A model generated the notes under the pieces. It was not told where the DNA came from and did no database searches. It saw only the letters and a list, made by a program, of their open reading frames with translations. This document shows, in pieces, positions 822 to 20,021 of a DNA stretch of 40,222 nt. Position 1 is the stretch's first letter; every line of letters starts with the position of its first letter. The position numbers and the translations under genes are program-made. Source of the stretch: Burkholderiales bacterium (GTDB taxonomy: Bacteria; Pseudomonadota; Gammaproteobacteria; Burkholderiales; Burkholderiaceae_E); contig JBKCEY010000429.1 of NCBI GenBank assembly GCA_046304115.1, positions 1-40,222 on the forward strand. The letters run 5' to 3'.

Positions 822-2571
822 GGTCGAGACGTCCGAGCGCGCGCTCGAGCGCACGCGCAATGGCCTCGGGATCGAGGCTGCGCCAGCGGGCGCAGACATG
901 CTGGTCGGGTCGCAGCAGCACGACGGTGCCGGATCGGGCCGCGCAACGCTCGCGCAGCAGACCCCGGGTGTCTTGCCAGAGGCCCGCGAGGAGCCCCCCA
1001 GGCAGGGCCTGGCCGTGTGCTTCGTTCAGTGGCTGATCTGCGCTCACGATGCGATGCACCCGCAGTTCGGGCAGACCCAGGTCGCTCAGGCGGCGGGCCA
1101 TCGCCTGCAGGGCCGCAGCGCCGGGCTGTGTGCCGTCCTCATCGAACACCAGCAGGGCGAATCCCTCACCTGAAAGGGCTCGCAGCCACCAGGTGGGCTG
1201 ACCCCGCGCATCAGTCAGGGGGGCATCGACACTGGGCGCGCCCGGACGCATGCCCGGGGCGGCGCAAGGTCCTGCGGCAGGCGGATCGGGCGTATTGGCA
1301 GGGCTGGTCTCCAGTACCGTCGGCACCGAGAGCCGGCCGCTGTTGACCAGTCGGCGGGCAAAGGGCTGTGTTGCGGCCAGTTCAAGCGTGGCGTCGCGCA
1401 GGGCTTTTGCTGCGGCGGACTTCGGGGTGATGAAGTCGGTGCTGCGGGTGGAGTTGAGAATGTTCTCGTCGGCTGCCACTTCGCGCTCAAGGGCCCAGTG
1501 ATCGAGTACGGCCTGCGAGGCCTGCCGATTGACCACCGCCGCCAGCCGCCAGGCCAGCGCGTCGGCGTCCTGGATGCCCGAGTTGGCGCCGCGCGCGCCA
1601 AAGGGCGAGACCTGATGGGCGCTGTCACCGGCAAACAGCACATGCCCGTGACGAAAGCGCTCCATGCGACGGCACTGGAAGGTGTAGACGCTGGTCCAGA
1701 CCAGTTCGAAGTCGCGATCGCCCATCATGGCGCGCAATCGAGGCAGTACGCGCTCTGGCTGACGCTCGAGCTCCGGGTCGGCATCCCAGCCCAACTGAAA
1801 ATCCACCCGCCAGACATTGTCGGCCTGCCGGTGCAGCAACACAGACTGCCCCGGATGAAAGGGCGGATCAAACCAGAACCACCGCTCGGTCGGATAGTCG
1901 GCCTTCATCAGGACATCGGCGATCAGGAATCGGTCATGAAAGACCTGACCGCGGCTCTCCAGTCCCATCATGCGGCGGGTTGGGCTGCGGGCACCATCAC
2001 AGGCGACGAGCCAGTCGCATTCGAGCCGATAGCTTCCCTCGGGTGTATCGATCCCGATCATGACCGATTCAGGACCCTGCTGAACTTCTGTGACCCGATG
2101 GGCCCAGCGCAGATCAAGCGCTGGCAGGGCCCGGGCCCGTTGCACCAGGATGTCCTCGAGGTGGTACTGCTGCAGGTTCACAAAGGCCGGCCGCTCATGA
2201 CCCGCCTCGGGCAGCAGATCGAAGTGATAGATCTCGCCTTCGCGAAGGAATACCCGCCCGCGGTTCCAGCTCACGCCGCGCGCCACCACCGGATCGGCGC
2301 ATCCCAGGCGATCCAGGATCTCGAGACTGCGCTTGGCGTAGCACACGGCGCGCGAGCCGGTGCTCACGGTGGTGTCATCATCAAGCACCACCACAGGCGT
2401 GCCGCGCTGGGCCAGGTCGATCGCCGTGCACAGCCCAACCGGGCCCGCCCCGATCACAACGACCGGATGGCGCACCGGCTGCAATGCATCCTGATCAGCA
2501 CTGCGCTGATACGGAAACGGTATCGGGTTCTGCATGAGGGTGTTTGTACAAAAAGGGACTCGACCAGCCAT
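760..2571 (-). CDS. FAD-dependent aromatic-ring monooxygenase (MhpA/PheA-TfdB-like hydroxylase)
   Basis: Has the Rossmann motif VVVIGAGPVGLCTAIDLAQRG and the FAD-binding motif FAGDSAH, with a ~590-aa two-domain architecture. A more likely start is the ATG at 2535 (MQNPIPF...). The C-terminal ~20 aa are repeat-derived. Confidence 0.85.
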   Translation of the reverse strand: MAGRVPFCTNTLMQNPIPFPYQRSADQDALQPVRHPVVVIGAGPVGLCTAIDLAQRGTPVVVLDDDTTVSTGSRAVCYAKRSLEILDRLGCADPVVARGVSWNRGRVFLREGEIYHFDLLPEAGHERPAFVNLQQYHLEDILVQRARALPALDLRWAHRVTEVQQGPESVMIGIDTPEGSYRLECDWLVACDGARSPTRRMMGLESRGQVFHDRFLIADVLMKADYPTERWFWFDPPFHPGQSVLLHRQADNVWRVDFQLGWDADPELERQPERVLPRLRAMMGDRDFELVWTSVYTFQCRRMERFRHGHVLFAGDSAHQVSPFGARGANSGIQDADALAWRLAAVVNRQASQAVLDHWALEREVAADENILNSTRSTDFITPKSAAAKALRDATLELAATQPFARRLVNSGRLSVPTVLETSPANTPDPPAAGPCAAPGMRPGAPSVDAPLTDARGQPTWWLRALSGEGFALLVFDEDGTQPGAAALQAMARRLSDLGLPELRVHRIVSADQPLNEAHGQALPGGLLAGLWQDTRGLLRERCAARSGTVVLLRPDQHVCARWRSLDPEAIARALERALGRLDRSADQPISRSARLLRSSVAP

Positions 2572-2636
2572 TATCGATGACCAGGGTTTGAATCTTGCCT
2601 GCAGCAGGGGGTGTCCCCGGCTTGGGATCCCTCCGG

Positions 2637-2720
2637 GGTCCTGTTCAATCGGAGTTCCCGTTCAATCCGCGGTCCCGTTGAATCCGTGGTCCCGTTCAAT
2701 CCGTGGTCCCGTTCAAGCGG
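2637..2720. repeat. Five tandem copies of a 17-bp unit (GGTCCCGTTCAATCCGT)
   Basis: Copies lie at 2637, 2654, 2671, 2688 and 2705 with 0-4 mismatches each. The array is intergenic, between the monooxygenase and the kinase-like gene. Confidence 0.9.
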
Positions 2721-2962
2721 AGGTCTCGCATGATGTTCTCGAACCTGCGACCCGACCATCCGGGTCAACCGCCCCGACCGAATCCCGATCGGCCAGGACC
2801 CTGGCCCTGGCCGTTTGAGCATCCTCAGTTCGATTGAATGGCCGAAGAATTAACCCTTAGGAGTTAATTTTGAGCGGATCAGACATGGATTACAGAGCAA
2901 TTTCTGACAAATGTTACAGAGTTGTGTTGAGATTATTGCCATCTCGTAGGAAGTCCATCTGA

Positions 2963-3679
2963 ATGAAGCCGAACAGGGGCCTGCAAGCCCCCGACCTCGC
3001 GTCCTCCGTACGCCATGACCTGCGCAATCCGCTCGGGGCCATTGCCCATTGGGTGCAACTGCTCGAGACGCCCGACCTCGATGCCGAACTGCGACAGCGG
3101 GCCCTGCAAGGCATCCGCACGGCAATCACTGAACAGCTCAACCAGATCGAGCAGCTGTCCGAACTGCTCGAGCAATCGAGCGAAGCCGACCCGGACGGCC
3201 CTCAGGTGTCGGTCTTGCCCCCAGCCCATCCGCGGGTCGACCTGTTCGACGTTCTGAATCAGATGGCTGAATCCATCCCTCCTGCCCTGCGCACGCGCCT
3301 TCAACGGCGAGACCAGCGGCCCGTTCGCTCCGCCCTCATTCATGCCGATGAATCCGCGCTCGTGCAGGCGCTGACCACGCTGGCCACGCTGGGGCTCAAG
3401 CAGTTGCTGGATCATGAGCAGCTTCTGCTTGGCCTTCAAACACCCGCGCCACTGGGCGCCTGCCGCATGGTCTTGCAAGTGCAGGTCGTGGGAGAGCCCA
3501 TCGAGCGGCCCTGGCGGATTCTGTCCGACACCGGCTCCGTGCGGGGCCTGGCCGTCATGCATGCGCGTTCTGTGCTGAGCCTGCATCGGGCGGATGTGCG
3601 CATCGTCACAACCGATCATGCCGACGACACGGTGATCCTTGACTTTCCGCTGATTGAACTGGCCTTTGATGAAACCTGA
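2963..3679 (+). CDS. Sensor-less histidine-kinase-like protein (HisKA H-box intact, HATPase boxes degenerate)
   Basis: The H-box SVRHDLRNPLGAI lies at residues ~15-27, and an AGGAAG SD sits 9 nt upstream of the ATG. The C-terminal half aligns by eye to the HATPase_c fold but lacks the N-box Asn and the DxGxG motif. No TM or sensor domain. The stop lies 1 nt before the activator ATG. Confidence 0.7.
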   Translation: MKPNRGLQAPDLASSVRHDLRNPLGAIAHWVQLLETPDLDAELRQRALQGIRTAITEQLNQIEQLSELLEQSSEADPDGPQVSVLPPAHPRVDLFDVLNQMAESIPPALRTRLQRRDQRPVRSALIHADESALVQALTTLATLGLKQLLDHEQLLLGLQTPAPLGACRMVLQVQVVGEPIERPWRILSDTGSVRGLAVMHARSVLSLHRADVRIVTTDHADDTVILDFPLIELAFDET

Positions 3680-3680
3680 T

Positions 3681-5033
3681 ATGCGCCATGTGCTGATCGT
3701 TGACGACGAAACCAATTCCGCTCAGGCCCTCAGTGCACTGGTCCAGGAGCAGGGCTATTCCACGGCGGTGGCCTCCTCACTGCGTGAAGCCCGCCAGCAG
3801 CTCATGCTGATGCCGGCGCAGGCAGTCATTCTTGATCTGCATCTGCCCGACGGCAACGGATTTTCCCTGCTCGAAGATGCTGCGCTGGTTGCAGGCGCCG
3901 AGATCATTCTGGTGACCGGTCATGCCAGCATCGAGTCTTCGGTACGCGCGCTGCGCCTGGGTGCGGTGGACTATCTCGTCAAGCCCGTGCAACCGGCGCA
4001 ACTCAAGCAGGTGCTGCAGCGCCTGGGTCAGGGTCGTGAGGTGAGGGCAGATATCCAGAAGCGAGCGGCTGAAGTGCCGCAATCAGGACAGTTTGGACGT
4101 CTGATCGGCGAATCTGCCGCCATGCAGCGGGTCTATGCGCAGATCGCCCGGGTGGCGCCCACCGCGGTCAATGTCTTCATCGTGGGGGAGTCCGGAACGG
4201 GTAAGGAACTGGTCGCCCAGACCCTTCATGAACTGTCGCGCCGGCGGCGCGCCCCCTTGCTGTCGGTCAATTGCGGCGCGATTTCGGCGCAGTTGATCGA
4301 AAGCGAACTCTTTGGTCACGAAAAGGGCAGCTTCACCGGGGCCAGCCGTCAGCATCGGGGATATTTCGAAAGGGCTGATGGCGGCACGCTCTTCCTGGAT
4401 GAGATCACCGAGATGCCCATGGATCTGCAGGTCAAGCTGCTGCGGGTGCTCGAGACCGGTGCATTCACCCGGGTAGGTTCTGAGGATCCGATCCAGACCG
4501 ATGTGCGAATCCTGGCCGCCACCAACCGCAATCCTCACGAAGCCGTCAGTGCCGGTCGCTTGCGCGAGGATCTGTTCTATCGGCTCGATGTCTTCGAGAT
4601 CGCACTGCCTGCGCTGCGCGCGCGTGCGGGTGATGCGACCCTGCTGGCCAAGACCTTCCTGCGCGAAGTCAATGAACTCGAAGGGCTCGAGTTGTCGTTC
4701 AGCGAGGGTGCCCTGAAGGCGCTTGAGACCTATAGCTGGCCGGGCAATGTCAGGGAGCTGCGCAATGTGGTGTGCCGATCGGCCCTGATGGCTGATGGCA
4801 AACGGATCGAAGAGTTGGCCTTGCCCGAAGTGCCGAACACTGCAGCACATGCGGTGGGCAACGGGACATTGAAGTCATCGGTTGGATCGACGATTGCTCA
4901 AGCCGAGCGTGACCTGATCCTGGCTACGCTCGAGCATTGTCATGGCCTGCGTGAACCCACTGCCGAGATGCTGGGCATCAGCCTCAAGACCCTCTACAAC
5001 CGCCTGCGGGACTACGGTCAGAGCCCGGCCTGA
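3681..5033 (+). CDS. Sigma-54-dependent response regulator (NtrC family enhancer-binding protein)
   Basis: REC domain (LIVDDE...DLHLPDG), AAA+ Walker A GESGTGKE, sigma-54 contact loop present as GSFTGA, and a C-terminal Fis-type HTH ([20 protein letters not shown]). Alternative starts are the ATG at 3669 and the TTG at 3654. Confidence 0.9.
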
Positions 5034-5110
5034 TTGGCCTGCAGGGCTGAGCTCAGCCCCCCTCCTGATCGGCCGGCAGGGCTGAGCTCAGAGCCCCACC
5101 TGATTAGCCC
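5018..5110. repeat. About 2.7 tandem copies of a 35-bp unit spanning the 3' ends of the two convergent genes
   Basis: Copies at 5018-5052 and 5053-5087 share 29/35 identity, and a partial copy starts at 5088. Each unit contains the palindrome GGCTGAGCTCAGCC or a near-copy. Copy 1 carries the activator stop codon and copy 3 carries the rpoN stop codon. Confidence 0.8.
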
Positions 5111-6695
5111 CAGCCATGCGACGCATCTCGACCGGAGGAATCCGTAACGCGTCGCGATACTTCGATACCGTGCGACGAGCCACCTGGATGCCGCGCTGCT
5201 CGAGCATTCGCGCCAGCCGGATATCGGACAGCGGAGATTGCGGATCTTCGGCCTGGACCAGCTCCTGGATGACTGCACGAACTGCGGTGGCGGAGCAGGG
5301 CGTGCCGGCTGCGGTGCTCACATGACTGCCAAAAAACCGCTTGAATTCCAGTAGCCCGCGCGGCGTAGCCATGTACTTGCGGCTGGTCACGCGCGAAACG
5401 GTTGATTCATGCATGCCGGTGCGGGCGGCGATTTCGGCCAGCGTAAGCGGACGCATGGCCATCTCGCCATAGTCGAAATAGCGACTCTGGTGGTCGATGA
5501 TCGCCTGAGCCACCTGCTGAATCGTCTGAAAACGCTGGTGCACGTTGCGTACGAGCCAGCGCGCTTCCTTCATGCATTGCGCAATCTGGCCGTCAGGTTC
5601 GCGCGTACCCCGCATGAGGGCGATGTTGCGACGGTGGATGCGCACCTTCGGGACGACTTCCGGGTTGATGAAGGCCGTCCAGCGACCCGCCTGGCGTCGC
5701 ACGATGACATCGGCAACCACGAATTGCGGTGATTCGCTGTCGAAGGCACTGCCGGGTCGGGGAACAAGACTGCGCAGCAGCTGTACCGCCGCCTGCAGCT
5801 CAGCGGCGGTGCAGCCCAGAGCCCTCTGGATCGCGTTGAAATCATGCTGCGCAAGTTCGCGCAGGTGAAGCCGCACAATGGTCATTGCCAGCGCCGTCAT
5901 GTTCTGGCTCTGTGTCTGTGTCTGTGTCTGTGTCGGGCGGCCTGCCCGTTCCTGCAACTGCAGCAGCAGACATTCAGCGACATCGCGTGCGCCCACGCCC
6001 AGAGGATCCATGGATTGCACATGACGCAGCGCGATCCGAAGCTCGTCTTCAGCAGGCGCGGGATCCGTTGGACAGAAGGCTGCGATGTCCTCAAGCGATG
6101 TGCGCAGGTAGCCCGCCTCATCGATGGCCTCGATCACGGTTTCGACCAGCAGCCGATCGCGCGCCGAGAGTCTGAGCACACCGGCCTGTTCGCGCAGATG
6201 CTCGCGAAGCGATGGGGCCCGTCCCACCTGACTCCAGGCCTCAGAGGCATCCTCATCCGGCCTGGAGCCGGCATTGCCTGAGTCACCGGTGTCGGCCCAC
6301 AGCAGGTCGTCCTGCCGGCCTGAGTCAGATCCTTCGTCGTTGAACGCGGTGTCGGCCTCGGCTCGGCTGGCTGCTTCATCGTTGGCGGGCCCGGAAAACG
6401 CATCGCCGGACCCCTCGCTTTCTGCGCCGGAATCAGACCCGTCATGAAGCTCGGACGCATGCTGCGACGACAGTGATGACAGCGAGCCCGCCTCGGCCTG
6501 AGAGCCCTCCTCGGACACCCGAGTCTGGCCATCCTGCGGGGTATCGAGTCGCTCGAGGAAAGGGTTGTCTCCAACCACCTCATCCACCTGTTGTGCAAAT
6601 TCAAGATTCGACAGCTGCAGCAACTGGATCGCACGCTGCAGCAAAGGGGTCATGGTCAGGTGGGTCGACTGACGCAGGGACAGGCTCATGCTCAT
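5088..6695 (-). CDS. rpoN: RNA polymerase sigma-54 factor RpoN
   Basis: 535 aa with region I LRQSTHLTMTPLLQRAIQLLQLSNLEF, a long acidic region II, and a C-terminal RpoN box ARRTVSKYR. An AAGGTGA SD precedes the ATG. It is not in the usual lptB-rpoN-hpf context within this window. Confidence 0.93.
   Translation of the reverse strand: MSMSLSLRQSTHLTMTPLLQRAIQLLQLSNLEFAQQVDEVVGDNPFLERLDTPQDGQTRVSEEGSQAEAGSLSSLSSQHASELHDGSDSGAESEGSGDAFSGPANDEAASRAEADTAFNDEGSDSGRQDDLLWADTGDSGNAGSRPDEDASEAWSQVGRAPSLREHLREQAGVLRLSARDRLLVETVIEAIDEAGYLRTSLEDIAAFCPTDPAPAEDELRIALRHVQSMDPLGVGARDVAECLLLQLQERAGRPTQTQTQTQSQNMTALAMTIVRLHLRELAQHDFNAIQRALGCTAAELQAAVQLLRSLVPRPGSAFDSESPQFVVADVIVRRQAGRWTAFINPEVVPKVRIHRRNIALMRGTREPDGQIAQCMKEARWLVRNVHQRFQTIQQVAQAIIDHQSRYFDYGEMAMRPLTLAEIAARTGMHESTVSRVTSRKYMATPRGLLEFKRFFGSHVSTAAGTPCSATAVRAVIQELVQAEDPQSPLSDIRLARMLEQRGIQVARRTVSKYRDALRIPPVEMRRMAGANQVGL
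5909..5934. repeat. In-frame hexanucleotide repeat (TCTGTG)x4+ inside rpoN, encoding (TQ)n
   Basis: Read directly. On the minus strand it encodes TQTQTQTQSQ in the linker before region III. Confidence 0.85.
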
Positions 6696-6753
6696 GGGTT
6701 CACCTTGGGAGTCCGTAGTGGCATCGCTTCACTGCGAGCGTCTGCACTGAGCC

Positions 6754-6768
6754 GCAAGCTTCGTGCCA
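6754..6768 (-). promoter_or_regulatory. Sigma-54 (-24/-12) promoter upstream of rpoN
   Basis: The minus strand reads TGGCACG-AAGC-TTGC-G, a full match to TGGCACG-N4-TTGC with exact GG-N10-GC spacing. The predicted start is near 6742, about 47 nt upstream of the rpoN ATG at 6695. Confidence 0.7.
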
Positions 6769-6856
6769 TGGGCCTGGATGGACTGAAAAGCGAGGAAACA
6801 TCCCGTGGCCTCGGTCGCTTGCTCAGTGACGGCTTCGGTAATTCGGGTGTGCCGAT

Positions 6857-6871
6857 CGGTCAGACTGACCG
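6857..6871. promoter_or_regulatory. Perfect dyad CGGTCAG-A-CTGACCG, candidate activator UAS
   Basis: A 7+1+7 palindrome centred about 97 bp upstream of the -24 GG of the rpoN promoter, the usual distance for EBP sites. A 1-nt centre makes an RNA hairpin role unlikely. Confidence 0.3.
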
Positions 6872-6881
6872 GCCTGCGGTT

Positions 6882-7550
6882 TCAGTGTCGGGTCGGTGCC
6901 TGGATCGACGCTGTGATTCGGGTGCCGGTTTGTGGCTGCGACTTGATCCGAAGATGGCCCTGCACCGCGCGCAGCCTGGCTCGCATGCCCCGGATGCCTT
7001 CATGTCCGGCGCCTACCCGATCCGTCCGGAATCCGTGACCGTCATCCGTGATGACCAGCCGGATGCGGCCTTTCACGCACTCGAGTTTCAGTGAGGCCTT
7101 GCGGGCACCGGAGTGTCGGTGCAGATTGGTCAGACACTCCTGGGCGCACCGATAAAGCGCCAGAGCCGCCATGCCATCGAGCTGGGCCTGCGGACTGACC
7201 GAGAGGGTCATTTCGCCCGAAAAGCGCGAGGCGAAATCGCGCGCCACGGCCTCGATGGCGATGGGCAGGCCAAACTGCTCGAGCGCGCTGGGATGCAGGC
7301 CCTGAACGACCCGGCGCAGCTCGACCTGACCGTCCTTGAGCAGGGTCTCCAGCCGCTGCAGCCGACCGGTCCAATCGGTTCGTGAGTGACTGCGGTGGGT
7401 TCGCAGCCAGGCCACATCCAGACGGGCGGCCGTGAGGACACTGCCGAGTTCGTCATGCAGCTCCTGTGCGAGCTGGCTGCGTAAGGCGTCGCTCGACTCG
7501 GGTGCCGATGCTGCGGTCGGCATCGTGCTGTGTCGGATTGCAGAGGGCAT
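6882..7550 (-). CDS. Sensor-less histidine kinase, HisKA_3/NarX-type core (DHp + HATPase_c)
   Basis: H-box LAQELHDELGSVL, N-box ECLTNLHRHS, G-box ITDDGHGF, no TM segments. The ORF track starts at a TTG at 7682, but the first in-frame ATG is at 7550. The 44 aa in between are low-complexity and overlap two sigma-54 promoter motifs. Confidence 0.8.
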   Translation of the reverse strand: MPSAIRHSTMPTAASAPESSDALRSQLAQELHDELGSVLTAARLDVAWLRTHRSHSRTDWTGRLQRLETLLKDGQVELRRVVQGLHPSALEQFGLPIAIEAVARDFASRFSGEMTLSVSPQAQLDGMAALALYRCAQECLTNLHRHSGARKASLKLECVKGRIRLVITDDGHGFRTDRVGAGHEGIRGMRARLRAVQGHLRIKSQPQTGTRITASIQAPTRH

Positions 7551-7604
7551 GTGTGCGACCGGCCGGTCGACACTGCGTGAGTGTGTGGGAGTGGGACGCT
7601 GACT

Positions 7605-7619
7605 GGGCACGGCATTTGC
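7605..7619 (+). promoter_or_regulatory. Sigma-54 (-24/-12) promoter facing the NarL-type regulator gene
   Basis: The plus strand reads gGGCACG-GCAT-TTGC-C with exact spacing. The predicted start is near 7631, about 115 nt upstream of the ATG at 7745. Confidence 0.55.
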
Positions 7620-7663
7620 CTCCTGATCGCTGGAACACGCCTGTTGGCGGCCTGTGGGCTCAG

Positions 7664-7678
7664 GCAAACGCCATGCCT
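7664..7678 (-). promoter_or_regulatory. Sigma-54 (-24/-12) promoter facing the HisKA_3 kinase gene
   Basis: The minus strand reads aGGCATG-GCGT-TTGC-C with exact spacing. The predicted start is near 7652, about 100 nt upstream of the ATG at 7550. Confidence 0.5.
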
Positions 7679-7744
7679 GCAACGCCTCAACCTGCGTGTT
7701 GACCTGAGATCTCGCAGTCCCCTTTCATCGCCAGGAGAGCTTCC

Positions 7745-8401
7745 ATGATGACCAGTCCATCGAGCAGAAAGATCCGTGTCGCCATCTGCGACGACCATCC
7801 CATCGTACGCGCGGGTTTCCGCCAGTTTCTTGACGGACAATCCGACATGGATGGTGTGCGTGAAGTCGAAAACGGGCGCGAGGCGCTCGAGCTTGTGCGC
7901 AACGATCTGTGCGATGTCCTGTTGCTCGATATCTCCATGCCGGGGCAGAACGGGGTGGACGTCCTGCGGGCCGTCAAGCTGCGCCGGCCTGACCTGCCGG
8001 TGCTGATGCTCTCGGGCTTTCCTGAGCAGCACTACGCCTTGCAGATGCTCAAGCTCGGGGCCAGCGGTTATCTGCCCAAGGACTGTGAGCCGACCGATCT
8101 GCTCAGGGCGGTACGCTCGGTGGCTCAGGGCCGTCGGTTCGTGACGGAGGCTGTCGGCGATCTGCTCGCCAATGGTCTGGGCGGCAACAATGACGAACCC
8201 CCCCACGCCCAGCTGTCCGATCGGGAGTTGCAGGTCTTTCTGCGCCTGGCCAAGGGCGAATCGGTCACTGCGATCGCCAATGTGCTCAATCTGAGCTTCA
8301 AGACCATCAGCACCTATCGATCGCGGGTCCTCGAGAAGCTCAATCTTCGGTCCAACAGCGATGTGACCTACTACGCCATGAAGAACGGGCTGATCGAGTA
8401 A
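7745..8401 (+). CDS. NarL/FixJ-family response regulator (REC + LuxR-type HTH)
   Basis: REC domain (VAICDDHPIVRAG...LLLDISMPG...K) plus HTH LSDRELQVFLRLAKGESVTAIANVLNLSFKTISTYRSRVLEKL. An AGGAGA SD lies 8 nt upstream. Confidence 0.9.
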   Translation: MMTSPSSRKIRVAICDDHPIVRAGFRQFLDGQSDMDGVREVENGREALELVRNDLCDVLLLDISMPGQNGVDVLRAVKLRRPDLPVLMLSGFPEQHYALQMLKLGASGYLPKDCEPTDLLRAVRSVAQGRRFVTEAVGDLLANGLGGNNDEPPHAQLSDRELQVFLRLAKGESVTAIANVLNLSFKTISTYRSRVLEKLNLRSNSDVTYYAMKNGLIE

Positions 8402-8408
8402 CCGTCGC

Positions 8409-10769
8409 TCAGAACATCTGGTCGCGCACGCGATCGCCCGTGGCGCCGCTGCCCAGGCCTTCCTCGGTCAGCCCGAGGGAGGCGACGCCTTTGCCTGGCA
8501 CCGATTCTGCGAAGTACCACTCGCCGTTGACCTGAACCACCCCGGGTGGTGGGTCCGGTGTGCGGTCGGGCACGCCCTTGAGCGCGACTTCCATGGCGTC
8601 GATCCAGATGGGCAGTGCAAGACCGCCCCCGGTCTCGCGATCGCCGAGCTTGCGGGGTTTGTCATGACCGACCCAGGCCACGCCGGCCAGACCGGGCTGG
8701 TAGCCCGCAAACCACGCGTCATGCGAATCGTTGGTGGTGCCGGTCTTGCCCGCCAGATCCTGGCGTTTCAGGCGAAGGGCCGCGGCTGCGGTGCCCTTGC
8801 GAACGACATCGCGCAGCAGGCTGTCCATGATGAAGGCATTACGGGCATCGATCACGCGGTTGGCCTCGTCGCCTGAGCGCACCGGCTGGGCCTGCGCAAT
8901 GACCTTGCCACTGGAATCCGTGATCCGCGCAATGAGGTAGGGCTGCACCCGATAGCCCCCATTGGCGAAGACCGACATTGCGCCCACCATCTGCCATGGC
9001 GTGACCGAGCCTGCGCCCAGGGCCATCGTGAGGTAGGGGGGGTGGCGGGCTGCATCAAAACCAAAGCGCGTGATGTAGTCCTGGGTGTACTGCGTTCCGA
9101 TCGCCTGCAGCAGGCGGATCGAGATCATGTTCTTGGACCGGGCCAGGCCCGCACGCAGGGTCATCGGACCGTCAAACTTGCCGTCGTAGTTCTTGGGCTC
9201 CCAGACCTGGCCGCCGGTGACCGAGGCACTCACGATCACAGGCGCGTCGTTGACCAGGGTTGAGGGCGTGAACCCGCGCTCGAGTGCCGCCGAGTACACA
9301 AAGGGCTTGAAGCTCGAGCCGGGCTGGCGCCAGGCCTGCGTGACCCGATTGAACTTGTTGCGATTGAAGTCAAAGCCACCCACCATCGACCGCACGGACC
9401 CATCGTCGGTACTCGCCGAAACATAGGCAGCCTGCACTTCTGGAAGCTGAGTGATCTCCCATCCCTTGGCGCTCTGGCTGATGCGCACCACGGCCCCGGG
9501 CGATAGACGCTTTGCTGGCTGAGCCTTGTCGGACAGCCAGCCGGCAACGAATTTCAGTCCATCGCCTTCGATATCAACGATCTGGCCGCGACTGCGGCTC
9601 ACAGTGACCTTGCGTGGGCTGGCCTCCAGCACCACGGCCGGGTTGAACTCGTCGATGTCACCCGCTTCGAGCAGCGCTTCCTCGATCTTTTCTTCGCGCC
9701 GGGCCCGGTTGGCGGGCAGTTCGATGCGAGCCTCCGGGCCCCGATAGCCATAGCGCCGGTCATAGCCGATCACGGCCCGGTTGAGGGCCTGGGTGGCGGC
9801 GCGCTGATCGGCCGCGCGCAGGGTGGTGTAGACATTGAGCCCGGCAACATAAGCCTCTTCCCGGAACTGCTCGATGGTCAGTTGTCGCGCGAGTTCTGCG
9901 GCGTAGGGCGCACGCACGGCAAACTCGCTGCGTTCGGGCTGCAGCCGCAGGGGCTCGACCAGTGCGGCCTGGTAGAGCCGGTCATTGAGGTAGCCCAGAG
10001 CATTCATGCGACCCAGGATGTATTCCTGGCGGATGCGGGCCCGTTTGGGATTGACCACCGGGTTGTAGGCCGAGGGCGCCTTGGGCAGGCCCGCGAGCAT
10101 GGCGGCTTCGGCTGCGCTGATCTGGGCGAGGGGCTTGCCGAAATAGATCTGCGCCGCAGAGGCAAAACCATAGGCACGCTGGCCCAGGAAGATCTGGTTG
10201 ATGTAGATCTCGAGTATCTGCTCCTTGGTCAGGGCCTGCTCGATGCGGATCGACAGCAGGATCTCGTAGATCTTGCGGCTGTAGCTGCGTTCGTTCGACA
10301 AAAAGAAATTGCGAGCGAGCTGCATGGTGATGGTGCTTGCGCCCTGGGCCTTGCCTCCCGCCGCGACATTGGCGAGGGCAGCACGCACGATGCCCAGGAT
10401 GTCAACACCGTGGTGCTCGAAGAACCGGTCGTCCTCGGCGGCGAGGATGGCCTGCTTCATGACGTCAGGCACCTCCTGGATGCGCACCACGCTGCGGCGT
10501 TCTTCGCCGAATTCTCCAATCAGGACGCCATCGGACGTGAAGATGCGAAGTGGCATCTTGGGCCGGTAGTCGGTAATGACATCGAGCGAGGGCAGTTTGT
10601 CCCAGGCCAGCACGGCTGTCAGGGCCAGCGCCAGACCGACGGTGCTGACCAGCACGGCCGGAATCAGCACCAGCCAGCCGATCAGGCCCAGACCCCGCTG
10701 GCGCCTTCGCCCCTGCTCAACGCCGCGGGGCCGGCTCGAAGGCCGCAGCCAATCGGACAGGGCAGACAT
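8409..10769 (-). CDS. mrcA: Penicillin-binding protein 1A (bifunctional transglycosylase/transpeptidase)
   Basis: N-terminal TM anchor, GT51 motifs EDDRFFEHHG and GASTITMQ, and transpeptidase motifs SSFKP, SKN and KTGTT. Confidence 0.93.
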   Translation of the reverse strand: MSALSDWLRPSSRPRGVEQGRRRQRGLGLIGWLVLIPAVLVSTVGLALALTAVLAWDKLPSLDVITDYRPKMPLRIFTSDGVLIGEFGEERRSVVRIQEVPDVMKQAILAAEDDRFFEHHGVDILGIVRAALANVAAGGKAQGASTITMQLARNFFLSNERSYSRKIYEILLSIRIEQALTKEQILEIYINQIFLGQRAYGFASAAQIYFGKPLAQISAAEAAMLAGLPKAPSAYNPVVNPKRARIRQEYILGRMNALGYLNDRLYQAALVEPLRLQPERSEFAVRAPYAAELARQLTIEQFREEAYVAGLNVYTTLRAADQRAATQALNRAVIGYDRRYGYRGPEARIELPANRARREEKIEEALLEAGDIDEFNPAVVLEASPRKVTVSRSRGQIVDIEGDGLKFVAGWLSDKAQPAKRLSPGAVVRISQSAKGWEITQLPEVQAAYVSASTDDGSVRSMVGGFDFNRNKFNRVTQAWRQPGSSFKPFVYSAALERGFTPSTLVNDAPVIVSASVTGGQVWEPKNYDGKFDGPMTLRAGLARSKNMISIRLLQAIGTQYTQDYITRFGFDAARHPPYLTMALGAGSVTPWQMVGAMSVFANGGYRVQPYLIARITDSSGKVIAQAQPVRSGDEANRVIDARNAFIMDSLLRDVVRKGTAAAALRLKRQDLAGKTGTTNDSHDAWFAGYQPGLAGVAWVGHDKPRKLGDRETGGGLALPIWIDAMEVALKGVPDRTPDPPPGVVQVNGEWYFAESVPGKGVASLGLTEEGLGSGATGDRVRDQMF

Positions 10770-18178: not shown

Positions 18179-19324
18179 ATGACGGCATTTGATTCCCTGA
18201 TGTCGATCACGCTGGCGCCCTATGCAGCCCATCCTTCAGCCAGCCGCGGGCGGGTGCATGACGAGCCTGCACCCGAAGGGCGCGATGCCTTTCAGCGCGA
18301 TCGCGATCGCATCGTGCACTGCACCGCCTTTCGTCGCCTCGAATACAAGACGCAGGTCTTCGTCAATCATGAGGGTGATCTCTTTCGCACGCGCCTCACG
18401 CATTCCATCGAGGTCGCCCAGATCGCGCGTTCGGTGGCAAGGCGCCTGAGGCTCAACGAGGATCTCGCCGAAGCCATCTCGCTGGCCCATGATCTGGGTC
18501 ACACGCCCTTTGGCCATGCCGGTCAGGATGCGCTCAATCGCTGCATGCAGCCCTGGGGCGGCTTCGAGCACAACCTGCAGTCGCTGCGGGTGGTCGACGA
18601 GCTCGAGGAGCGCTATGGCGCTCACGACGGCCTGAACCTGTGCTTCGAGACCCGCGAGGGCATCCTCAAGCACTGCTCGGCCAGCCATGCGGCGCAGCTG
18701 GGCGAACTCGGCCGCCGCTTCATCGAGCGGACCCAGCCCTCGCTCGAGGCGCAGCTGGCCAACCTGGCCGATGAGATCGCCTACGTCAATCACGATGTCG
18801 ATGACGGCTTGCGTTCAGGACTGCTGCGCGTGGCCCAGCTGCAGCAGGTCGCGCTCTTTGGCCATCACCATCGGGAGGTTCTGGGCCTTTTTCCGCAGGT
18901 GAGCGAGCGGCGCCAGATCCACGAGACCGTGCGCCGAATGATCAATGAGCTTGTGACCGACCTCACGACTCACAGTGGCTGGCGGATTGCCGAGCGCGCG
19001 CCTGCTGACATCGCGGCGGTTCGCGCGAGCGTGCCGCTGGTGGGGTTTTCGGATGCTGTGGCCCAGCGTGCGCGCGACCTCAAGCGGTTTCTCTTCGAGC
19101 ATCTGTACCGGCACTTTCAGGTGGTCCGCATGACCAACAAGGCGGCCCGCATCATCACCGAACTCTTCGAAGCCTTCGTGGCCGACCCCCGCCTTCTGCC
19201 CGACGATCATCGCCGCCGCGCCGAGCGCGATCTGCATCGCGCGATTGCCGATTACGTGGCGGGCATGACCGATCGCTATGCCATCCGGGAGCATCGGCGC
19301 ATCTTCTCCTTCGACGAGGCCTGA
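18179..19324 (+). CDS. dgt: dGTP triphosphohydrolase-like HD-domain protein
   Basis: Motifs [15 protein letters not shown] and [12 protein letters not shown], with the typical ~380-aa Dgt-like subfamily length. Confidence 0.88.
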
Positions 19325-19325
19325 G

Positions 19326-20021
19326 ATGGCCAGGGCTGCCCGGCCTGTGGTGACCGGTTTGCCGCTGCATGTCATTCAGCGCGGCAACAACCGGCAGGCT
19401 GTTTTTCTGGATGACCAGGATCGCCGCGATTACCTGCGCTGCCTGGCTGATGCCTGCATCGAGCATGGCCTGAGCATTCACGCCTATGTCCTGATGGATA
19501 ACCATGTCCATCTCCTGTGCACGCCCGAACGCGAAGGCGCCCTTTCGGGGGCGATGCAGGCCCTGGGGCGTCGGTATGTGCGCCACTTCAATCGGCGCCA
19601 CGCCCGCACCGGCACCCTGTGGGAGGGGCGGTTTCGATCCTCGCTGGTTGAGGCGGACCGCTACCTGCTGGCCTGTCACCGCTATATCGAACTCAACCCG
19701 GTGCGAGCCGGTCGGGTCGAGCAGCCCGAGGCCTGGGTCTGGTCGAGCCATCGTCATCATGTGGGCCTTGCGGTCGACCCACTGGTGCGCCTGCACCCGG
19801 TGCTCTATACCCTGGGCAATACGCCCTTCGAGCGGGAGTCGGCCTATCGTCGTCTCTTTGAAGAAGGCCCGATCCCGGCCGAAGGCGAGTGGCTCACCCA
19901 ATGCCTTATCTCGGGTAAACCAACAGCAAGTACTGACTTTCAGAGGGCGATGGAGGCCGGGCATGGCCTGAAGCTCACCGCCCGTCCGGTCGGGCGGCCC
20001 AAACGCCTCGTGACGGACTGA
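19326..20021 (+). CDS. REP-associated tyrosine transposase-like protein (RAYT; IS200-like Y1/HUH family, COG1943 type)
   Basis: HUH motif DNHVHLL and catalytic Tyr region CHRYIELNPVRAG, plus N-terminal LHVIQRGNNRQAVF. The ATG lies 1 nt after the dgt stop. No IS ends or second transposase ORF are visible. Confidence 0.8.
   Translation: MARAARPVVTGLPLHVIQRGNNRQAVFLDDQDRRDYLRCLADACIEHGLSIHAYVLMDNHVHLLCTPEREGALSGAMQALGRRYVRHFNRRHARTGTLWEGRFRSSLVEADRYLLACHRYIELNPVRAGRVEQPEAWVWSSHRHHVGLAVDPLVRLHPVLYTLGNTPFERESAYRRLFEEGPIPAEGEWLTQCLISGKPTASTDFQRAMEAGHGLKLTARPVGRPKRLVTD

Follow-up and report, generated by a model that had tools for sequence, protein, structure and literature searches.

We analysed a compact regulatory island that surrounds a gene for sigma-54 (rpoN) in a Burkholderiales bacterium of the GTDB family Burkholderiaceae_E (assembly GCA_046304115.1, contig JBKCEY010000429.1). 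The whole stretch of DNA under study, positions 1 to 40,222 of the forward strand, is referred to here as the window. The island comprises five genes, namely one for a short protein that matches only the HisKA family (the HisKA-only protein), an NtrC-class enhancer-binding protein (the activator), a convergent rpoN, a sensor-less kinase of the HisKA_3 type, and a divergent regulator of the NarL/FixJ type (Table 1). All five reading frames are intact, and the domain content given to these genes by an initial annotation, made from the sequence alone, was borne out by Pfam and NCBIfam. One flank of the module is made up of cyaY and a FAD oxidoreductase gene and the other of mrcA, pilMNOPQ, aroK and aroB, while domain annotation assigned ordinary metabolism genes to the remainder of the 40-kb window. 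The usual surroundings of a housekeeping rpoN are missing, as had been noted initially: lptB, hpf, ptsN and hprK were all searched for and none was found within the window. An Rfam scan of the whole window returned 0 matches.

Table 1 Genes, predicted promoters and repeats of the sigma-54 island, with positions in the window
Feature	Position	Strand	Description
HisKA-only protein	2963-3679	+	238 aa; HisKA is the sole Pfam match
NtrC-class enhancer-binding protein (activator)	3669-5033	+	REC, sigma-54 AAA+ and HTH_8 domains; GSFTGA loop
Sigma-54, rpoN2-type paralog	5088-6695	-	535 aa; AID, CBD and DBD; convergent with the activator gene
HisKA_3 + HATPase_c kinase	6882-7610	-	242 aa; soluble, sensor-less; GTG start
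NarL/FixJ-type response regulator	7745-8401	+	218 aa; REC + GerE; divergent from the kinase gene
rpoN promoter	6754-6768	-	TGGCACGAAGCTTGC (TGGCAC-N5-TTGC); 59 bp before rpoN; 0 mismatches
Regulator promoter	7605-7619	+	GGGCACGGCATTTGC (GGGCAC-N5-TTGC); points at the NarL-type regulator gene; 1 mismatch
Kinase promoter	7664-7678	-	AGGCATGGCGTTTGC (AGGCAT-N5-TTGC); 54 bp before the HisKA_3 kinase gene; 2 mismatches
Degenerate -24/-12 remnant	2584-2598	+	GGGTTTGAATCTTGC; ~365 bp upstream of the HisKA-only gene; -24 element keeps GG alone
17-bp tandem repeat	2632-2725		TCCGAGGTCCCGTTCAA; 5.5 copies, 83% matches; between the FAD oxidoreductase and HisKA-only genes
35-bp tandem repeat	5018-5109		2.6 copies; spans the convergent stop codons of the activator gene and rpoN
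Perfect 13-bp palindrome	6858-6870		GGTCAGACTGACC; just past the kinase stop codon, ~90 bp upstream of the rpoN promoter

The sigma-54 protein of the island matches all three Pfam families expected of it (PF00309, PF04963 and PF04552, representing region I and the core-binding and DNA-binding domains), and it scores 414 bits against TIGR02395, where the cut-off is 277. Its RpoN box, ARRTVSKYR, is near-standard, and region II is long, acidic and rich in serine. Within region I, the protein carries M15, L18 and R21 at positions where the housekeeping proteins have L, Q and Q. Its identity to lptB-linked rpoN proteins is 43-48% (mean 0.48), including 43% to the lptB-linked sigma-54 of a related metagenome-assembled genome (MAG), whereas the lptB-linked proteins share a mean of 60% among themselves. 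A scan of GTDB genomes placed 67 of 80 loci in the lptB-rpoN-hpf-ptsN-hprK context among the matches listed, which included one locus of the module type (L010).

To place the protein among its relatives, we computed a neighbour-joining tree with 60 bootstraps. The sigma-54 proteins of the module formed a clade in 60/60 bootstraps, and this clade was joined by that of a sister locus, L077, in 57/60. Together with the other copies found outside the lptB context, among them those of Ralstonia, Paraburkholderia, Caballeronia and Pigmentiphaga, the two were separated from all lptB-linked rpoN in 57/60 bootstraps. Furthermore, both paralog groups have derived residues in common where the housekeeping proteins are near-invariant, for example at Gln18 of region I, which both have lost.

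The two kinds of rpoN occur side by side in related genomes. More specifically, MAG GCA_035628395.1 encodes a housekeeping sigma-54 (HYF57321.1) in the order lptC-lptA-lptB-rpoN-hpf-ptsN-hprK-rapZ and a module-type sigma-54 (HYF57483.1) next to a convergent REC-AAA+ activator gene, followed by a receiver gene, a HisKA-only gene, Transgly_assoc, cyaY and lysA. The two were linked via their consecutive GenBank accessions and their shared assembly, and both contigs co-occur in two further datasets. A perfect -24/-12 motif, the sequence recognised by sigma-54, stands at the module-type rpoN of this MAG and none at its housekeeping rpoN locus. Housekeeping and paralogous rpoN genes are also found together in MAG JBAYRO01 (L066 and L077), in Ralstonia chuxiongensis and in Paraburkholderia sp. 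BCC1886.

Judged by its sequence, the sigma-54 of the window is an rpoN2-type paralog and not the housekeeping copy. The dedicated paralogous module proposed in the initial annotation is upheld by a paralog clade that stands apart from lptB-linked rpoN and by the presence of both rpoN kinds in a related MAG, and from such relatives we infer a second, housekeeping rpoN in the window's own genome. One could instead regard the gene as the sole housekeeping rpoN of its genome, moved out of the lptB-hpf context and accompanied by unrelated regulators as passengers. Such a relocation would fit with the lack of a second rpoN in the 40-kb window and with a protein that has kept all three domains and passes the TIGR02395 cut-off. 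We consider it very improbable, given the low identity to lptB-linked proteins, the grouping with known second copies in 57/60 bootstraps and the two copies in one related MAG. In addition, the same neighbours recur across all module loci, and a lone sigma-54 gene served only by a sigma-54-dependent promoter could not start its own expression.

Two side observations concern the rpoN genes themselves. Within the rpoN of the window, a perfect hexanucleotide microsatellite (TCTGTG, 4.3 copies, 5909-5934) encodes the run TQTQTQTQ, which in the sigma-54 alignment is confined to the window variant; the microsatellite could permit in-frame length variation. On the housekeeping side, the sequence TGGTAC-TGTTC-TTGC (TGGTACCGTTCTTGC in L023) lies in the 3' end of lptB, 109-204 bp upstream of the housekeeping rpoN, and is common to one clade of lptB-linked loci (L011, L023, L032, L046, L063 and L066). 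Either conservation of the coding sequence or a sigma-54 site that serves autoregulation of the housekeeping rpoN could account for it.

Three -24/-12 promoters had been reported at the island, aimed at rpoN, the kinase gene and the regulator gene, and all three are present with a position and orientation that are kept in relatives. The raw count of motifs with at most one mismatch is not significant (6 observed in the window versus 4.5 expected), and a perfect motif was observed once versus 0.14 expected. The significance of these promoters comes from their position, their orientation and their conservation in five diverged loci, and not from the motif count. A perfect motif lies at the equivalent place before the orthologous rpoN in L005, L006, L008, L010 and L093. 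The promoter pair between the kinase and regulator genes is retained in the four loci aligned (L005, L006, L008 and L010), with the kinase promoter reading AGGCAC-N5-TTGC in L005 and GGGCAC-N5-TTGC in the other three, and the intergenic -24/-12 matches within the modules all face module genes. Among the matches listed, 12 of 13 other paralog loci likewise carry a -24/-12 motif 36-97 bp before the start codon (the exception is L089), in contrast to most housekeeping loci, which have none. The operon that begins with the HisKA-only gene has a motif of its own in relatives, GGGCGC-N5-TTGC in L005 and GGGCAC-N5-TTGC in L006 and L008.

The kinase and regulator promoters of the window face each other at a distance of 44 nt, so that the predicted 5' ends of the two mRNAs overlap in antisense by ~22 nt. 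The GTG start codon of the kinase is the complement of the -24 element of the regulator promoter (GTGCCC), and the kinase Shine-Dalgarno sequence, AGGAGG, 9 nt upstream of that start codon, also lies on the complement of the regulator promoter. Between the two promoters sits a palindrome, CGCC-TGTT-GGCG in the window and CCCGAG-CGT-CTCGGG in L008, whose sequence varies among lineages while its symmetry is kept. This layout, together with the retained palindrome, hints at transcriptional interference or a shared operator.

The five-gene arrangement proved to be conserved in relatives. The order of the module genes between cyaY and mrcA is common to L001-L010, with the sigma-54 of the window being 71% identical to that of L005, 53% to L006/L007, 55% to L008/L009 (MAG GCA_046046245.1) and 52% to L010 (a Lake Pavin MAG). 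Every close relative is a metagenome contig or a MAG of an uncultured Burkholderiales bacterium. The reduced form with five genes is found in the window and in L005. Other versions are fuller: a single-domain receiver is encoded between the HisKA-only and activator genes in L006, L008, L010 and L093, and a hybrid HisKA-HATPase-REC kinase just upstream of rpoN in L008 and L010. Also present in the more distant versions are small genes of the BON, DUF883 and Transgly_assoc types and a gene for a transglutaminase-like protein.

Such a distribution could mean that the window contains a decaying remnant of the fuller cassette, deprived of its hybrid kinase, receiver and stress genes, that has ceased to function as a circuit. 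Relative to L006, L008 and L010, neither the window nor L005 has the hybrid kinase, the single receiver or the BON, DUF883 and Transgly_assoc genes, and in the window the promoter of the HisKA-only operon is degenerate, with a 17-bp tandem repeat inserted downstream. We nevertheless regard decay as unlikely. The five reading frames are intact, and an identical sigma-54 protein is encoded on four independent metagenome contigs from four datasets that match the window. The regulator (87-94% identity) and the three promoters are conserved. Since the reduced form is common to L005 at 71% sigma-54 identity, it has been kept through substantial divergence.

Further variants were also observed. The sister locus L077 (11527-15633) is a third architecture of the relay, in which one protein of 376 aa joins the HisKA domain, with its degenerate CA domain, to a receiver, and the genes that come next encode a receiver protein, a GSFTGA activator and a Zn-ribbon protein (PF10005); -24/-12 motifs precede the fusion gene and the Zn-ribbon gene. 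In L093, from the MAG that has both rpoN types, two further -24/-12 motifs are present (6089-6103 and 643-657). One precedes a group of AI-2E-transporter, isochorismatase and hemerythrin genes, and the other lies 162 bp upstream of a gene for a 99-aa protein with no Pfam match, divergent from rpoN.

The constant position of the module directly beside mrcA and pilMNOPQ would also be expected of a local regulator of cell-wall synthase and type IV pilus genes rather than of a stress module, and in many proteobacteria sigma-54 and PilR-type activators control pilin genes. However, none of the module loci has a -24/-12 motif directed at mrcA or pilM; the matches in that region are all either inside mrcA or misoriented. 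L077 and other rpoN2 loci lie elsewhere with different neighbours, and the activator is not a PilR equivalog, all of which makes a local role of this kind improbable.

The activator matches PF00072, PF00158, PF25601 and PF02954 in Pfam. The receiver Asp, Thr and Lys are readable in its translation, as is a GSFTGA loop at ~4308, and the protein is 63-85% identical in L005, L006, L008 and L010. The GSFTGA signature was found in 12/12 activators that adjoin paralogous rpoN genes (the window, L005, L006, L008, L010, L077, L019 with two, L065 with two, L067 and L089). As a named equivalog the activator could not be assigned, with all scores below the NCBIfam cut-offs (AtoC 394/714, NtrC 371/559, PEP_resp_reg 365/503, ZraR 335/760 and LuxO 335/800).

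The stop codon of the HisKA-only gene overlaps the start of the activator gene. Its product consists of a DHp domain and a CA-like domain that has no ATP-binding boxes. His18, which belongs to the motif VRHDLRNPL, does not vary among ten orthologues. When the protein was aligned with the hybrid kinases of L008 and L010, the asparagine of the N box, the DxGxG motif of G1, the F box and the G2 box all proved to be missing, and the ATP lid was found to be shorter; in its DHp helix the protein is very similar to these hybrid kinases. HATPase_c was not matched in the protein by Pfam. In an AlphaFold (AF2) model with a predicted local distance difference test score (pLDDT) of 69, a DHp hairpin is joined to an alpha/beta domain; the Foldseek matches of this model include kinase cores, HK853 among them, as well as DivL and RetS, which are non-canonical. 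Chains of ChpT or Spo0B were absent from the sequence matches in the Protein Data Bank (PDB) and from the top 50 Foldseek matches.

The family of this protein is very small and evolves rapidly: an exhaustive profile search of 1.84 billion proteins yielded 8 representatives at E<1e-10, and a word-index homolog search 7 relatives. Its best PDB sequence matches are 6nb0 (E = 6e-15) and 7ltq (5e-14), both titled 'Histidine kinase', followed by RetS. Entries 6nb0 and 7ltq carry the signature HDLRSPLNA...QRAL.GIR in common with the family, and solved structures of relatives may thus already exist with no function assigned to them.

ChpT and Spo0B combine a dimeric helical domain of the DHp type, bearing a phospho-accepting histidine, with a CA-like alpha/beta domain that has lost ATP binding, and their place is between a response regulator on one side and a hybrid kinase or receiver on the other. 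The window protein resembles ChpT of Caulobacter and Brucella and Spo0B of Bacillus in its two-domain layout, its conserved histidine and its lost ATP boxes, and its relatives are encoded beside a hybrid kinase and a receiver protein. It differs in that it is no member of either family by sequence, with Pfam giving HisKA alone. Because it joins a histidine-bearing DHp domain to an ATP-blind CA-like domain, and because relatives add the hybrid kinase and receiver, we consider that it most likely serves the activator in the manner of ChpT, as a phosphotransfer or phosphatase protein. The family seems to have an independent origin, in the hybrid kinase encoded at the same locus, and the window protein is better read as the leftover of a longer relay that in relatives includes the hybrid kinase and receiver. 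The initial annotation had described it as a partner kinase without a sensor and with degenerate ATP-binding boxes, and the loss of these boxes stands in the alignment; its label as a pseudo-kinase is better replaced by a ChpT-like phosphotransferase or phosphatase.

The protein might also take no part in a relay and instead be a dedicated phosphatase or a stoichiometric inhibitor that holds the activator off. It carries the motif H-D-x-x-N, which beside the histidine of HisKA kinases is associated with phosphatase activity, the non-canonical kinases DivL and RetS are among its structural matches, and neither the window nor L005 has a hybrid kinase or extra receiver nearby. We regard this as possible, although the less probable of the roles considered: the fuller relatives encode all that a relay needs, namely the HisKA-only protein, a receiver protein and a hybrid kinase whose own receiver is C-terminal, the DHp domain resembles that of the hybrid kinase, and relay and phosphatase activities are mutually compatible.

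The second kinase of the island matches PF07730 and PF02518, and its presumed partner, the NarL-type regulator, PF00072 and PF00196. The kinase translation shows recognisable H, N, G1 and G2 motifs. No transmembrane or sensor region was found in this kinase, in which the H box comes after ~65 low-complexity residues without a domain match, and a similarly small size is seen in its orthologues (242-270 aa). The absence of an input domain from either kinase, as first described, holds, with HisKA only in one and no sensor in the other. Named equivalogs were rejected for the kinase (MctS 114/700) and for the regulator (GacA family 163/280), all below the cut-offs. Across L005, L006, L008 and L010 the regulator is conserved more strongly than any other module gene (87-94% identity); its conservation exceeds that of mrcA next to it (73-93%) and by far that of the HisKA_3 kinase (37-74%) and the HisKA-only protein (29-57%). 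The regulator is strongly constrained while its presumed kinase evolves fast. As the kinase has no input domain, its abundance would serve as the signal, and in the simplest reading the levels of kinase and regulator, set by the sigma-54 promoters, probably carry the signal.

Taken together, we read the island as the reduced five-gene form of a conserved regulatory cassette around an rpoN2-type sigma-54, and assign a probability of roughly 65% to this reading with the following mechanism. The housekeeping sigma-54, encoded elsewhere in an lptB-rpoN-hpf context, and the phosphorylated GSFTGA activator would open the promoter of the paralog, as the Ralstonia precedent described below and the conserved promoter suggest. 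The paralog would then feed back on its own promoter and drive those of the kinase and regulator, in keeping with their conservation. The sensor-less kinase would phosphorylate the NarL-type regulator, which would in turn act on output genes outside the window. The ATP-blind HisKA-only protein is predicted to set the phosphorylation of the activator as a ChpT-like phosphotransferase or phosphatase. The phosphate donor missing here may correspond to the hybrid HisKA-HATPase-REC kinase that fuller relatives encode at the locus along with an extra receiver.

Several observations weigh against this reading. The sigma-54 tree is a neighbour-joining tree with long branches. The housekeeping rpoN of the window's own genome was not found, and a profile search for the nearest housekeeping clade linked no contig to the window's population. 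For co-occurrence, the evidence lies in MAGs, which may be chimeric, and in a relative with 52% identity to the window in its module-type sigma-54. The window lacks the hybrid kinase and the extra receiver, which bears on the source of activator phosphorylation, and the HisKA-only operon has merely a degenerate -24 element, which bears on the expression of the activator. No sigma-70 consensus promoter was found in 2500-8500. The near-standard RpoN box does not distinguish the module sigma-54 from the housekeeping sigma-54 at these promoters. BON, DUF883, Transgly_assoc and the other stress genes of relatives are all absent from the window. Finally, deletion of rpoN2 in R. solanacearum had no phenotype (PMC4371752, PMC4676750).

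The closest known counterparts are found in Ralstonia and Burkholderia, at their rpoN2 loci. In R. solanacearum GMI1000, rpoN2 has a sigma-54 motif, shows induction in minimal medium and is silent in an rpoN1 mutant (PMC4371752), and the adjoining genes RSp1667 and RSp1668 encode GSFTGA activators that have been listed as likely rpoN2 regulators (PMC4676750). The role of rpoN2 has been said to 'remain enigmatic' (PMC4371752), owing to the absent deletion phenotype. The GMI1000 locus (RSp1667, RSp1668, RSp1671) resembles the island in having a second sigma-54 outside lptB-hpf with a -24/-12 promoter and, flanking rpoN2, activators with GSFTGA in place of GAFTGA, an arrangement that we confirmed at the Ralstonia chuxiongensis locus L019, and paralogs of the Ralstonia type share the window protein's side of the tree. 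The hybrid kinase of L019 is 46% identical to that of L008. In contrast, Ralstonia RpoN2 shares ~43% identity with the window sigma-54, its locus has two activators and lacks a HisKA-only gene, a HisKA_3 kinase and a NarL-type regulator beside rpoN2, and it lies on the megaplasmid and not between cyaY and mrcA.

The rpoN2 genes of B. pseudomallei, Paraburkholderia and Caballeronia are likewise second sigma-54 genes with a -24/-12 promoter, and they resemble L006 and L008 in the adjoining BON gene. They differ in their two-component parts and chromosomal position, and the window has no BON or other stress gene. Among more distant systems, the sigma-54 paralogs of Cereibacter (Rhodobacter) sphaeroides are present together in one cell and work with cognate activators, as the pairs RpoN1-NifA, RpoN2-FleQ/FleT and RpoN3-AprX (PMC11999139; Poggio et al. 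2006 via it). These pairs set a precedent for the idea that in the window, too, the GSFTGA activator might be matched to the altered region I of its sigma-54, although the system is alphaproteobacterial and unrelated by descent. In Rhizobium etli, transcription of rpoN2 reportedly depends on the first sigma-54 and NifA, as is said to have been described by Michiels and colleagues in 1998; this second sigma-54 gene is dedicated to symbiotic nitrogen fixation and is not known to be accompanied by kinase or regulator genes like those of the window. Overall, the module of the window belongs to the poorly understood rpoN2 loci of Burkholderiales. The initial statement that it is not a characterised module holds insofar as the rpoN2 kind itself is uncharacterised, but it has a precedent in the Ralstonia and Burkholderia loci (PMC4371752, PMC4676750).

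The genes near rpoN2 in relatives point to a possible output. A small BON gene stands beside rpoN2 in eight further loci (L030, L051, L058, L060, L065, L068, L080 and L085), as in L006 and L008, and sigma-54 motifs precede BON, DJ-1/PfpI and OtsA genes at rpoN2 loci of relatives. In L008, such motifs are found before Transgly_assoc, before the gene for the transglutaminase-like protein and before an operon of kinase, DUF883 and BON genes. Genes of the BON, DUF883, Transgly_assoc, DJ-1/PfpI, OtsA and katE types are of the kinds that belong to the RpoS regulon in E. coli. This pattern in relatives suggests that the cassette controls a general-stress-like gene set, associated with osmotic stress, desiccation and stationary phase. 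In the window itself no output genes are evident, as the initial annotation had remarked, and the stress-type genes of relatives are absent there. In B. pseudomallei, katE expression was lower in an rpoN2 mutant (PMC4745423). Our literature search found no paper that ties rpoN2 to a general-stress regulon.

The island also contains repeats and palindromes. The 13-bp palindrome downstream of the kinase gene occurs once in the window, over a background of weaker matches, and is a speculative candidate for a binding site of the activator or regulator; it is speculative because the palindrome is common to L005 alone (GGTCAGTCTGACC) and not to the more distant loci. An enhancer site common to all module promoters was not found, and L006, L008 and L010 hold a different conserved block. 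The 35-bp repeat contains a perfect 13-bp inverted repeat (CTGAGCTCAGCCC / GGGCTGAGCTCAG, 5047-5059 and 5079-5091) and is a possible bidirectional terminator. A search for intrinsic terminators with a canonical T-tract found none in 2500-8500, this repeat included. The 17-bp repeat, situated between the -24/-12 remnant and the HisKA-only gene, is absent in the aligned regions of L005, L006 and L008. Farther away, between the genes for a dGTPase-like HD protein and gltB, an open reading frame of 247 aa (19278-20021) has an IS200-like Y1 transposase domain (PF01797) and could encode a REP-associated tyrosine transposase.

Second sigma-54 genes are common in Burkholderiales. Recurring at such loci are an activator of the GSFTGA type, a sigma-54 promoter and, in many lineages, sigma-54-promoted genes of osmotic stress, desiccation or stationary phase. 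As a tentative and rather doubtful extension, the rpoN2-type sigma-54 and its GSFTGA activator might form a matched and partly insulated switch that is ignited by the housekeeping sigma-54, amplifies itself and is possibly bistable, and that serves a general-stress regulon across Burkholderiales; in the window's lineage its output would pass through the amounts of the sensor-less kinase and the NarL-type regulator, as set by their face-to-face sigma-54 promoters. The regulon of this matched pair may include BON/OsmY-like, ElaB-like, YeaQ-like, DJ-1/PfpI, trehalose synthase and catalase genes. The locus as a whole presents two independent cases of stripped-down signalling proteins, an ATP-blind phosphotransfer or phosphatase protein and a sensor-less kinase whose level is probably the signal. 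If the pairing of sigma-54 and activator is truly selective, it would represent a natural orthogonal sigma-54 system, of interest to research on gene regulation and to synthetic biology. The recurring features of these loci lead to a hypothesis that is testable in culturable relatives, namely that rpoN2 in Burkholderiales operates a stress-triggered, self-reinforcing sigma-54 cascade.

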